Below, in pieces: positions 2,644-3,454 of a stretch of 3,454 nt of DNA (position 1 is its first letter; the number at the start of each line of letters is the position of its first letter). This DNA is from Escherichia coli (GTDB lineage Bacteria; Pseudomonadota; Gammaproteobacteria; Enterobacterales; Enterobacteriaceae). The stretch lies in the NCBI RefSeq assembly GCF_003334405.1, contig NZ_QOWM01000034.1. One strand, given 5' to 3'. The notes under the pieces are model-generated. The model did no database searches. It was not told the origin of the DNA and saw nothing but the letters and a program-made list of their open reading frames with translations. Made by a program: the position numbers and the translations under genes.

Positions 2644-2665
2644 ACCGTTGCGGTCGTCCGGTTCA
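2641..2665 (+). terminator. Weak candidate terminator hairpin after the membrane-peptide gene
   Basis: Stem TGAACCG (2641-2647) / CGGTTCA (2659-2665) with an 11-nt loop, followed by GATTCTTTCTCG. The U-tract is interrupted. Confidence 0.3.
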
Positions 2666-2855
2666 GATTCTTTCTCGTGGGTTACAGTAACATTGGCACT
2701 GTTGTTTTGTTTGTATGGTATATAGCATGGCAAAAAGAACGTTCTAAAGAAGAAGAGTTTAAATCAAGTATAAGACCAGAAGATTTTGTGAAGTGAAGTA
2801 TGGCTATGGTTAATTTTATGTAAAAATATATAGAGTCAGCTAAAATGAGGAGAAT

Positions 2856-3209
2856 ATGAAAAATAAAGTTGAACATATACGGAAAATGTTAACTACATCC
2901 ATCACTGGCATATGTACTATAGTGATGTCCTCTGTCGCAATTGCATCTGAAACAAAGGCTATTAGCCTGAATGATTTTTATGGTACGGAACCACAATATC
3001 TAATGCTATTTGAGCCTAAAACAAAATGCAAATATCAAGCAAAAGCTATTAAAGATGAAAAATCGGTAGAACGATGGAGATTTGTTATAATAAGTCGTGA
3101 TTGCAATGGCATTGTCCAAAAAGGAGATGAAATAAAATACAAATCGGTTTTACCAGATAATAACACCGAAAATTTTATAGCGTCGGGTTCATTATTTACA
3201 ATTTATTAA
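2856..3209 (+). CDS. Hypothetical secreted/periplasmic protein (117 aa) with a Sec-type signal peptide
   Basis: ORF track. SD GAGGAG 3-5 nt upstream. N-terminus MKNKVEHIRKM (basic), then a hydrophobic core LTTSITGICTIVMSSVAIA with an AxA motif (AIA before SE). The mature part is Lys-rich with two Cys. The gene and its flanks are visibly AT-rich compared with the partition module. Confidence 0.6.
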   Translation: MKNKVEHIRKMLTTSITGICTIVMSSVAIASETKAISLNDFYGTEPQYLMLFEPKTKCKYQAKAIKDEKSVERWRFVIISRDCNGIVQKGDEIKYKSVLPDNNTENFIASGSLFTIY

Positions 3210-3214
3210 AAAAT

Positions 3215-3234
3215 AAAAGCCCGAAAGGGCTTTT
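3215..3234. terminator. Bidirectional intrinsic terminator shared by convergent genes
   Basis: AAAAGCCC / GAAA loop / GGGCTTTT. The 8-bp stem is flanked by an A-rich run (3205-3218) and a T-run (3231-3234, then GATTT). It lies between the stop of the plus-strand gene (3207-3209) and the stop of the minus-strand ORF (3238-3240). Confidence 0.6.
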
Positions 3235-3237
3235 GAT

Positions 3238-3454
3238 TTACTCTTCATCATCCCGCAGGAACTGACAAAAGTCTTCGCTCCCCATCATATCGACAGTGTT
3301 TTTAAATTCGAAAAAAGAAATTCCTGTCATAGCACACACGCGTTGGATAATCAGTTTTTTCTTTTGCTGTCTGACGGTTGCGGTTTCACCAAACTGGATA
3401 ACAGCCAGGACTGTTTCATCATATGATTTCAGGACAAAATCACAGGTTATATTC
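3238..3454 (-). CDS. C-terminal 71 codons of an unidentified minus-strand ORF (N-terminus lies beyond the window)
   Basis: Own translation of the minus strand: ...NITCDFVLKSYDETVLAVIQFGETATVRQQKKKLIIQRVCAMTGISFFEFKNTVDMMGSEDFCQFLRDDEE, then stop (TAA = complement of 3238-3240). Open to the window edge and followed by a terminator. Not in the ORF track because it is truncated. Confidence 0.5.
   Translation of the reverse strand, partial: NITCDFVLKSYDETVLAVIQFGETATVRQQKKKLIIQRVCAMTGISFFEFKNTVDMMGSEDFCQFLRDDEE

Follow-up and report, generated by a model that had tools for sequence, protein, structure and literature searches.

The 3,454-nucleotide Escherichia coli window analysed here carries, on the backbone of an IncX4-like conjugative plasmid, a gene for a 117-residue protein (ORF 2856–3209, plus strand), the predicted fold of which is a stripped-down β-barrel of the VirB10 C-terminal domain. 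Purifying selection marks the ORF as a genuine gene, and very probably it encodes an exported small protein within a swapped-in cassette. More tentatively, we propose that the protein could act as a free periplasmic mimic of VirB10, a core subunit of the DNA-transferring type IV secretion system (T4SS).

Its family is very small, unnamed and plasmid-associated, with 8 representatives among 1.84 billion proteins. The protein is currently annotated as a ‘hypothetical protein’, and the initial annotation did not recognise it either. Sequence databases were equally silent. Pfam contains no match for the 117-residue protein, even at E ≤ 10; searches with all 15 family members against Pfam, and searches of NCBIfam and of PDB sequence profiles, returned nothing significant; PADLOC and PHROGs yielded no match better than E = 0.1. 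A phage origin finds no tblastn match in 50,697 phage records, and a literature search turned up no mention of the protein accessions. All family loci recovered in these searches reside on conjugative or large plasmids of Enterobacterales, including IncX-like and IncN-type plasmids, a 41-kb plasmid with VirB3/VirB4, a 49-kb Pantoea plasmid with NikA/relaxase, and large plasmids. PLSDB types 35 of the 37 family-bearing records as conjugative.

The mature domain (2946–3209, including the stop codon) is 87 residues long after the predicted AIA|SE cleavage site, in agreement with the earlier estimate, and it contains the two cysteines noted before. Cys58 is invariant and Cys83 is present in 14 of the 15 family members. 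In the AlphaFold model they flank a hairpin formed by strands 58–66 and 74–83, and a Cys58–Cys83 disulfide, which probably forms, would staple the open end of this β-hairpin. The description of the protein as Lys-rich did not hold up as a functional clue. There are 10 lysines (11.5%) in the mature part, but Lys and Arg (13) nearly balance Asp and Glu (12), the pI is 7.7, and the pI of relatives ranges from 5.3 to 7.9, so the enrichment is weak and is not a family trait; it is expected from AAA-rich codon usage.

Structure prediction provides the lead that sequence searches do not. The mature part is modelled as an essentially all-β domain, in which DSSP assigns strands and a single four-residue helix in both of the models obtained. 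In structural comparisons the two models match VirB10 C-terminal domains exclusively, with a clear gap to other barrels. The match extends over 82–90 residues, under half the length of a VirB10 C-terminal domain. Both models derive from shallow alignments (13–15 sequences) of one family and hence count as less than fully independent predictions. The fold in question is that of the C-terminal domain shared by VirB10, TraF, TrbI, TraB, ComB10 and CagY (PF03743; PDB ids: 3JQO, 2BHV, 6GYB, 6ODI, 7O3J, 7OKN). In the assembled secretion system, this domain occupies the centre of the O-layer, where it is ringed by VirB9 and VirB7, and its antenna helices form the outer-membrane channel (PMC9371333).

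Compared to VirB10, the 117-residue protein is predicted to be reduced in several ways. The C-terminal domain of VirB10 comprises about 190 residues in a protein of 370 or more, whereas the domain found here comprises about 87–100. VirB10 has an inner-membrane anchor, a cytoplasmic tail and a Pro-rich linker, while here the signal peptide appears to be followed by the barrel directly. The two-helix antenna is absent from the models. The true virB10 gene is found elsewhere on the backbone, flanked by virB9 and virB11, and the gene described here is outside the T4SS operon. Sequence comparison does not link the two proteins: aligning the family to a 23-sequence VirB10 C-terminal-domain alignment with hhalign gave a probability of 0.04%, BLASTP found no VirB10 match, and PF03743 matched none of the 15 family members. 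The fold match could thus reflect convergence on a small β-barrel. A resemblance noticed by eye between the C-terminal family motif LPIKAGSxYYIY..D.F and the VirB10 sequence PTMYKNQGDIITIMVGEDIDF is unsupported by the profile comparison, and we do not rely on it.

If the barrel is a VirB10 mimic, it would dock in the periplasm onto the barrel partners found in the outer-membrane core complex of a T4SS, that is, onto VirB9 or neighbouring VirB10 subunits. As a result, a conjugation machine would be modulated or poisoned, whether it belongs to a competing plasmid (an effect akin to fertility inhibition or exclusion) or to the plasmid itself. Extrapolated from the modelled fold, this mechanism is the reading we favour, a serious possibility that falls short of an even chance. 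Its broader form, in which the family would constitute an unrecognised class of periplasmic ‘decoy’ subunits, capping the outer-membrane core complex of rival or incoming T4SSs or becoming inserted in it, is doubtful. Weighing against the mimic are the position of the gene outside the T4SS operon and the presence on the backbone of its own VirB10 and of an EexN exclusion lipoprotein.

Several known plasmid factors resemble the proposed mimic in part. The EexN/TrbK-type entry-exclusion lipoproteins of MPF_T plasmids are likewise small, envelope-located and plasmid-encoded, and they affect conjugation machines. Unlike them, the 117-residue protein has no lipobox and no NCBIfam match, its gene lies away from the T4SS genes, and an EexN-family gene is separately present elsewhere on the IncX4 backbone. 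A second group is formed by fertility-inhibition factors. The coupling proteins of conjugation systems are cytoplasmic or inner-membrane components. Factors such as PifC, Osa and FipA are products of plasmid accessory genes directed against rival conjugation, the functional class proposed here, and PifC and Osa are reported to act against conjugative coupling proteins (PMC5696584). Mimicry of an outer-membrane core subunit in the periplasm would be a mechanism of another kind, and no homology was found. A single literature search for a free VirB10-like periplasmic protein listed none.

The best-surviving alternative holds that the protein is a periplasmic accessory factor unrelated to T4SSs and that its barrel is convergent. 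It could, for instance, bind the envelope, or be an orphan inhibitor or immunity protein directed against a toxin that acts in the periplasm, such as a colicin, a T6SS effector or a lysozyme-like enzyme. Small exported proteins with a conserved cysteine pair are typical of periplasmic inhibitors and immunity proteins, and the 117-residue protein, which is small, predicted to be exported and has such a pair, fits this description. The missing VirB10 sequence homology points in the same direction, as does the location of relatives outside T4SS operons, among genes of the establishment and anti-defence type (ardA, AcrVA2-like, ssb, SprT-like and umuDC-like). However, no immunity, defence or inhibitor family was matched in Pfam, NCBIfam, PADLOC, PHROGs or PDB sequences, there is no adjacent toxin gene, and the fold matches of both models are confined to VirB10 domains. 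We consider this alternative unlikely but deserving of weight.

Less probable is a role as an early-expressed establishment factor of the leading region. Such a factor would work in the envelope of a new recipient right after transfer, and not in donors, for example by blocking further mating or protecting the transconjugant. Blocks of ssb/ardA-type establishment genes are characteristic of leading regions (PMC11541004), and family members often adjoin such genes (ssb, ardA, SprT-like, umuDC-like). The IncN-type and Pantoea-plasmid homologues have ssb, ardA, AcrVA2-like and umuDC-like genes as neighbours, and the blocks of IncN-type and other plasmids further include ArdR-annotated and DnaJ-like genes; in them the homologue often overlaps its upstream gene. 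In the IncX-like plasmids, with L017 as the example, some 9.4 kb separate the gene from the NikA/relaxase-proximal end, towards which it is oriented; the position of oriT is presumed. Against such a role, the replication module intervenes between the gene and the presumed oriT in this plasmid type, and the backbone already encodes EexN. The leading-region factors known so far are cytoplasmic and act on DNA-targeting defences.

Both the mimic and these alternatives involve a protein in the cell envelope. Its putative signal peptide (codons 1–30, 2856–2945) consists of a basic n-region (MKNKVEHIRK, net charge +3), an uncharged h/c region and a predicted cleavage site, AIA|SET, with the small residues at −3 and −1 falling in residues 28–30. 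Relatives have ATA|G or AMA|G at this place, and the architecture is kept in every homologue despite differing sequences (20–40% identity). In the AlphaFold model residues 1–29 are unstructured, with pLDDT below 50. No lipobox ([LVI][ASTVI][GAS]C) was found in the protein or in five relatives, and the protein has no twin-arginine motif. Thus, the most likely route is export of the 117-residue precursor by the Sec pathway and cleavage by signal peptidase I after Ala30, which would release an 87-residue periplasmic protein. The initial annotation had called the signal peptide textbook; the basic n-region, the AIA motif and the homologues bear this out, but the core is only moderately hydrophobic (mean Kyte–Doolittle value of 1.6 over the 21-residue uncharged stretch and 2.13 over the best 10 residues, compared with 2.5–3.1 for homologues), so the term is generous.

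The same moderate hydrophobicity leaves some room for an uncleaved signal anchor, in which case the protein would be bitopic, held in the inner membrane with its barrel on the periplasmic side. The 21-residue uncharged Thr/Ser-rich stretch (MLTTSITGICTIVMSSVAIAS) could span the membrane, and VirB10 too has an inner-membrane anchor (PMC9371333). This topology is nevertheless distinctly improbable, as AIA|S conforms to the −3/−1 rule at the usual distance, the relatives have classical cleavable peptides, and evolution is faster in the signal peptide than in the mature domain (dN/dS of 0.66 and 0.22, respectively).

That the ORF is a genuine gene is clear from its evolution. In comparison with an 82%-identical orthologue, the dN/dS ratio over the entire ORF is 0.31. 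The five remaining reading frames are all closed, and a strong Shine–Dalgarno sequence, GAGGAG (2847–2852), ends three nucleotides upstream of the ATG. It is carried by an AT-rich linker (2797–2855, plus strand, 27% GC). The search for a σ70 promoter belonging to the gene was unsuccessful: no upstream site scored 9/12 or better, and the weak 8/12 site at 2818–2846 ends 10 nucleotides before the ATG. The 68-residue versions of the protein, considered as truncated pseudogene alleles, proved to be a matter of gene calling: the DNA is identical and retains the whole ORF. The idea that the ORF is a functionless chance frame or decaying remnant in AT-rich junk DNA could draw on its ‘hypothetical protein’ status, the 68-residue calls of some pipelines, the lack of a strong promoter and the decay of adjacent slot genes, but it is for practical purposes refuted by the selection data and by homologues of 20–40% identity that keep the length, signal peptide and cysteines, and AF2 folds the protein confidently.

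Databases record this exact protein on 287 contigs, and 424 index blocks list it. The DNA at 2797–3240 is identical in 8 of the 10 draft-assembly plasmids compared (L013–L022), with one base differing in L020. A diverged backbone, L006, carries a copy with 89% nucleotide and 82% amino acid identity in the same slot; there the homology is restricted to 2834–3211 and the hairpin described below. The region 2797–3236 is without a match among 72,556 PLSDB plasmids and among 5,426 complete E. coli genomes, chromosomal copies included.

The gene is located in a variable cargo slot (2404–3236) of the IncX4-like backbone, delimited by the stop codon of the RHH (ParG-like) gene and by that of the convergent DUF2726-domain gene, the 3′ end of which (3238–3454, minus strand) is again homologous to the backbone. 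Up to 2403 and from 3231–3237 onwards the backbone is 96–99.6% identical to IncX4-type plasmids, with different genes in between. Homology to the relatives L001 and L002 stops at 2402/2403 and restarts at 3231–3237, and the intervening content varies among relatives. Comparison with related replicons, which had been suggested as a check, therefore confirms that slot content differs between otherwise ~96–99% identical backbones. The reference IncX4 plasmid has a DUF2806 protein gene at this insertion point, between the ParG-like gene and DUF2726, and ETEC6335 has genes for membrane proteins of 84 and 141 residues. The sequences of these occupants are unrelated to the 117-residue protein, and in each case a separate terminator hairpin directly adjoins the stop codon of DUF2726. 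A relationship to the 141-residue occupant, which also has two cysteines, was considered and rejected (the family HMM gives about 1 bit). That the gene forms a conserved pair with an upstream gene for a small membrane protein could not be established, the similarity between the 79-residue protein of L006 and the 84-residue protein of L001 being marginal (33% over 30 residues, E of 0.008 in a three-sequence search).

The slot in this plasmid also contains genes that are visibly decaying. An ORF of 71 codons with two predicted membrane spans (2428–2643, plus strand) lies outside the cassette of the 117-residue protein. An in-frame TGA splits it from the 50 codons that follow, its L001 homologue (5770–6020, 89% nucleotide identity) is degraded by frameshifts, and it has no family match in NCBIfam, PHROGs or PADLOC. 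Next comes the 3′ remnant of the gene for an 84-residue membrane protein with two transmembrane spans (2691–2796, plus strand), which appears as a 39-codon ORF (2677–2796) and is 94% identical to positions 5605–5710 of L001, i.e. to the end of WP_021526207.1. In a megablast search with 2644–3240, the matches in PLSDB (154 records) were confined to this remnant. The stretch 2790–2822 is similar to a junction sequence found repeatedly where cassettes meet in L001, and the cassette of the 117-residue protein proper extends from 2797 (or 2834) to 3236.

Base composition changes across the slot. The GC content is 44.2% in the backbone (1–2403), where the lowest 440-bp window never falls below 40.0%, and 31.6% in the unique segment (2797–3236), a difference with a chi-square p of 1.2e-6. 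It is 34.6% over the whole slot, 33.2% across 2644–3240 and 31.9% in the 117-codon ORF, in which GC3 is 0.24 as opposed to 0.45 in parA. The compositional distinctness noted earlier is thus upheld. The proposal of a separately acquired segment starting at about 2650 was correct in pointing to a variable region but not in its limits. The GC content declines gradually from ~2404, comparison with relatives places the left slot boundary at 2403/2404 and the right one at 3236/3237, the cassette itself begins at 2797, and 2677–2796 is the remnant of another gene, separate from that of the secreted protein. The best explanation for 2797–3236 is a small, AT-rich, horizontally exchanged cargo cassette in a recombination-prone slot between the partition module and the DUF2726/replication module.

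The cassette ends in a GC-rich hairpin (AAAAGCCC-gaaa-GGGCTTTT, 3214–3235) with a ΔG of −12.9 kcal/mol (z = −3.8). It is called as a terminator on both strands, with the better T-run on the minus strand, and serves both the gene of the 117-residue protein and the convergent DUF2726 gene ending at 3238, which agrees with the initial annotation of a shared terminator. The hairpins of L001, L002 and L006 differ from one another, and each abuts the DUF2726 stop. Since each slot variant has a different hairpin, the hairpin belongs to the cassette and not to the backbone.

IncX4-type plasmids are reported to be among the main vehicles of mcr-1 colistin resistance (PMC8725589, PMC5428312), and control of their transfer and their competition with other plasmids are of practical interest. 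With its gene lying apart from the transfer operon and present on several unrelated types of conjugative plasmid, an exported, free VirB10-like barrel would be a concrete candidate, open to testing, for modulating conjugation machines from the periplasm. Should it bind VirB9 or VirB10, it would offer a natural inhibitor scaffold for T4SS assembly, and a decoy class, if real, would be an envelope-level weapon in plasmid–plasmid competition, distinct from all known mechanisms of fertility inhibition and entry exclusion. Even if it binds neither, an abundant ‘hypothetical protein’ becomes a defined orphan family with a predicted fold, a putative export signal and a mapped hot-spot slot.

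The 117-aa ORF (2856–3209, + strand) lies in a variable slot (2404–3236) of an otherwise conserved backbone. Identity to the nearest relatives is 98.8–99.6% until 2402/2403 and picks up again at 3231–3237, and the content between these points varies among related replicons. In reference IncX4 plasmids this slot holds a DUF2806 gene. The ETEC6335 plasmid has two genes in it, of 84 and 141 aa, as well as a decayed version of the 71-aa ORF seen in the window; the window itself has the 71-aa ORF, a remnant of the 84-aa gene and the 117-aa gene. Every variant has a GC-rich hairpin of its own abutting the DUF2726 stop codon. 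The AT-rich character proposed in the initial annotation is borne out: GC content is 31.6% in the cassette (2797–3236) versus 44.2% in 1–2403 (chi-square p = 1.2e-6), no 440-bp window of the backbone falls below 40.0%, and GC3 is 0.24 in the 117-aa ORF versus 0.45 in parA. The border had been placed at about 2650; the drop in composition and the comparative boundaries are instead at 2404 and ~2797. The proposed span of 2644–3240 does contain the 117-aa gene, but its part at 2691–2796 is the 3' end of the gene for the 84-aa two-TM protein, 94% identical to a stretch of plasmid NZ_CP122596.1 (L001), in which that gene is intact.

Short junction sequences are repeated at cassette borders (2771–2798 and 2790–2822 in the window versus 6025–6051 and 5403–5436 in L001), and their recurrence there suggests repeated recombination at cassette linkers. 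The linkers, ~28–34 nt long (GAAGATTTTGTGAAGTGAAG... / GAAGTATGGCTATGGTTAATTTTATGTA), are found at the borders of different cassettes (2771–2822 in the window; 5403–5436, 5683–5710 and 6025–6051 in L001) and look like sites on which cassette shuffling acts, or scars that it has left. In L006, an IncX-like backbone that has diverged, the same slot holds a copy of the 117-aa gene with 82% identity. Nucleotide homology to this copy is limited to 2834–3211 and the hairpin, so the mobile unit is in essence the gene together with its RBS and terminator hairpin. Upstream in the slot, the 71-aa two-TM ORF (2428–2643) and the next 50 codons (to 2796), the last of which are the 84-aa-gene remnant, share one frame interrupted only by a TGA at 2641–2643. 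Locus L004 has this TGA too, as does the decayed copy in L001. The frame may mark the place where two genes for small membrane proteins were fused, or it may be one gene split by a stop codon.

The window matches more than 2,000 enterobacterial plasmids, mostly conjugative (megablast against 72,556 plasmids), and its nearest relatives are IncX4-type replicons of ~30–35 kb typed MOBP and MPF_T. According to the window ORFs and the annotation of these relatives, the gene order begins with the AgrB antisense RNA and the dqlB type I toxin, followed by a small ORF, the ParA/MipZ-type ATPase gene parA (1412–2059), an 89-aa RHH (ParG-like) gene (2134–2403), the variable stretch and the DUF2726 gene on the minus strand (stop codon 3238–3240); a 134-aa gene and the Rep3/pir replication gene follow outside the window. 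The AgrB-family RNA (294–381, minus strand) matches Rfam RF02891 with 62 bits (E 2e-9). It sits upstream of dqlB, a DinQ-like ORF of 31 aa (656–751, + strand), and a 33-nt direct repeat (350–382 / 548–580, 85%) at this locus is probably the antisense-target pair of a plasmid-borne AgrB/dqlB type I toxin-antitoxin system. Direct and inverted GTGACATACA-type repeat arrays on either side of parA (1243–1415 and 2056–2113) are likely centromere/operator sites of the ParA–RHH partition module. A C-rich stretch of 110 nt, which holds a GC-rich hairpin (GCCCGCCCGTACGGGCGG), is enclosed by the two arms of a perfect inverted repeat of 16 nt (TTTAGTTACAACATTC / GAATGTTGTAACTAAA; 1023–1164); the whole element separates a 72-aa ORF from the par promoter region. 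The IncX4 backbone also encodes the exclusion lipoprotein EexN and its own 372-aa VirB10, flanked by virB9 and virB11.

The 117-aa ORF is a real gene. It is widespread among draft assemblies, and the orphan family to which it belongs is tiny and restricted to plasmids. The ORF is preceded by GAGGAG, and the remaining five frames over it contain 4–14 stops. Comparison with its orthologue in L006 yields a dN/dS of 0.31 for the whole gene; the value is 0.22 for the mature part alone and 0.66 for the signal peptide. Database entries of 68 aa reflect a different choice of start codon on DNA that is identical, and the long form is supported by conservation of the stretch upstream of Met50 in distant homologues. 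The predicted signal peptide has a +3 n-region, 21 uncharged residues and AIA|SE at residues 28–30, with no lipobox in the protein, and both cysteines lie in the 87-aa mature part. All elements of the initial description, including the convergent neighbour and shared terminator, are present in the sequence; that description holds, and the cautious reading given with it is supported. The label Lys-rich carries little meaning, as K+R number 13 against 12 D+E and the pI is 7.7 (5.3–7.9 in relatives). The terminator hairpin (3214–3235, dG −12.9 kcal/mol, z = −3.8), which separates the ORF from the convergent DUF2726 gene, is called on both strands. On the + strand from 2300 to the ORF start no promoter scores 9/12 or higher, and the only hairpin before the terminator is weak and internal to the ORF (2956–2968), so the simplest inference from sequence is that the gene would be expressed by read-through from the par operon.

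The cassette has no megablast match and no tblastn match above 31% identity in PLSDB (72,556 plasmids), and no match in 5,426 complete RefSeq E. coli genomes. The exact protein nevertheless has records on 287 contigs and entries in 424 index blocks, drawn from draft assemblies and metagenomes of E. coli, Klebsiella and Salmonella. In the contigs fetched, the gene is always in the same slot on plasmid contigs of ~30–34 kb, and the DNA of 2797–3240 is identical in eight of ten loci (L013–L022), L020 differing at one position. Set against these draft records, the absence from PLSDB and the complete genomes is a striking gap in the sampling of this plasmid subtype.

Only a handful of relatives (eight representatives at E<=1e-3) emerge from 5.8 billion clusters searched by word index and 1.84 billion representatives searched in full with a HMMER profile; all have a signal-peptide-like start. 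They are ~117–133 aa long, or 206 aa with an N-terminal extension. C58, Y60 and G111 are invariant; C83, W74, P100 and Q47 nearly so. The family has no match in Pfam, NCBIfam, PHROGs, PADLOC or PDB sequences, and a literature search by accession found no paper citing its members. In the 206-aa members (L007 8001–8621 and its relatives P0006, P0007, P0009 and P0011), the extra ~100 aa follow the signal peptide, precede the VirB10-like barrel and contain three further cysteines; their genes are directly 3' of a gene for a 173-aa multi-TM protein, whose stop overlaps their start.

All family loci are conjugative or large plasmids, and 35 of the 37 PLSDB records with any member are typed conjugative. 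In IncN-type plasmids the gene follows ssb, a SprT-like gene, ardA and a gene annotated ArdR in some records, with an AcrVA2-like gene close by. The start of the family gene overlaps the end of the ArdR-annotated gene (L009 7217–8011, L012 7454–8017, L003 4445–4732), which encodes ~180 aa (a truncated 95 aa in L003) and is called 'antirestriction protein ArdR' in some records; the overlap suggests that a cytoplasmic regulator-like protein is translationally coupled to the secreted one. Elsewhere the gene follows SprT-like and membrane-protein genes (the 206-aa form, on an IncX-like metagenomic plasmid) or a Gp49/HTH pair (a 41-kb plasmid with VirB3, VirB4, TrbM and topoisomerase), is flanked by a DnaJ-like block on one side and umuDC-like and ssb genes on the other, with NikA and relaxase nearby (a 49-kb Pantoea ananatis plasmid), or is found near an orphan methyltransferase and hok (large plasmids).

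The AlphaFold2 model, built on a 15-sequence alignment, is all-beta with seven strands and an unstructured signal peptide (residues 31–117: block-mean pLDDT mostly 78–92, one block 65). Most Foldseek matches in AFDB50 are DotG/IcmE/VirB10/TrbI proteins, with probability 1.0 but weak E-values (6e-3 and up). Judged from the secondary-structure register of the first model, C58 and C83 lie where the hairpin of strands 58–66 and 74–83 opens, a placement compatible with a disulfide. Membership in the VirB10/TrbI family by sequence was rejected: there is no PF03743 match, BLASTP to VirB10 returns nothing and the hhalign probability is 0.04%. The structural link to the VirB10 barrel is reproducible in predictions from shallow alignments, and our literature search found no description of such a link for a free-standing secreted protein. 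In VirB10, the C-terminal domain is the centre of the T4SS O-layer, with VirB9 and VirB7 around it, and a two-helix antenna forms the outer-membrane channel (PMC9371333). The 117-aa protein shares the predicted barrel but, unlike VirB10/TrbI, lacks the antenna, the N-terminal membrane anchor and the Pro-rich linker, and its gene is outside the T4SS operon rather than between virB9 and virB11.

Tentatively, the protein may be a periplasmic mimic of the VirB10 barrel that would dock onto T4SS core-complex partners and so modulate or poison a conjugation machine. This reading would explain most of what is seen: the predicted export, the conserved Cys pair, a fold that matches only VirB10 barrels, a family found only on plasmids (the majority typed or visibly conjugative), a position outside the T4SS operon among accessory and establishment genes and the absence of the VirB10 parts for channel and energy-sensing functions. 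A role as a periplasmic inhibitor or immunity protein unrelated to type IV secretion, with a convergent barrel, would fit the empty sequence comparisons; it is possible but doubtful. An early establishment factor acting on the recipient side, which the ssb and ardA neighbours of IncN-type relatives would suit, overlaps partly with the VirB10-mimic reading and is unlikely as an account of its own. Membrane anchoring, which concerns topology and not function, is improbable beside the AIA|SE motif, and a non-functional ORF is hardly credible at the dN/dS observed. Beyond the gene itself, the analysis adds the exact boundaries of the cassette and the hot-spot nature of the slot that it occupies.
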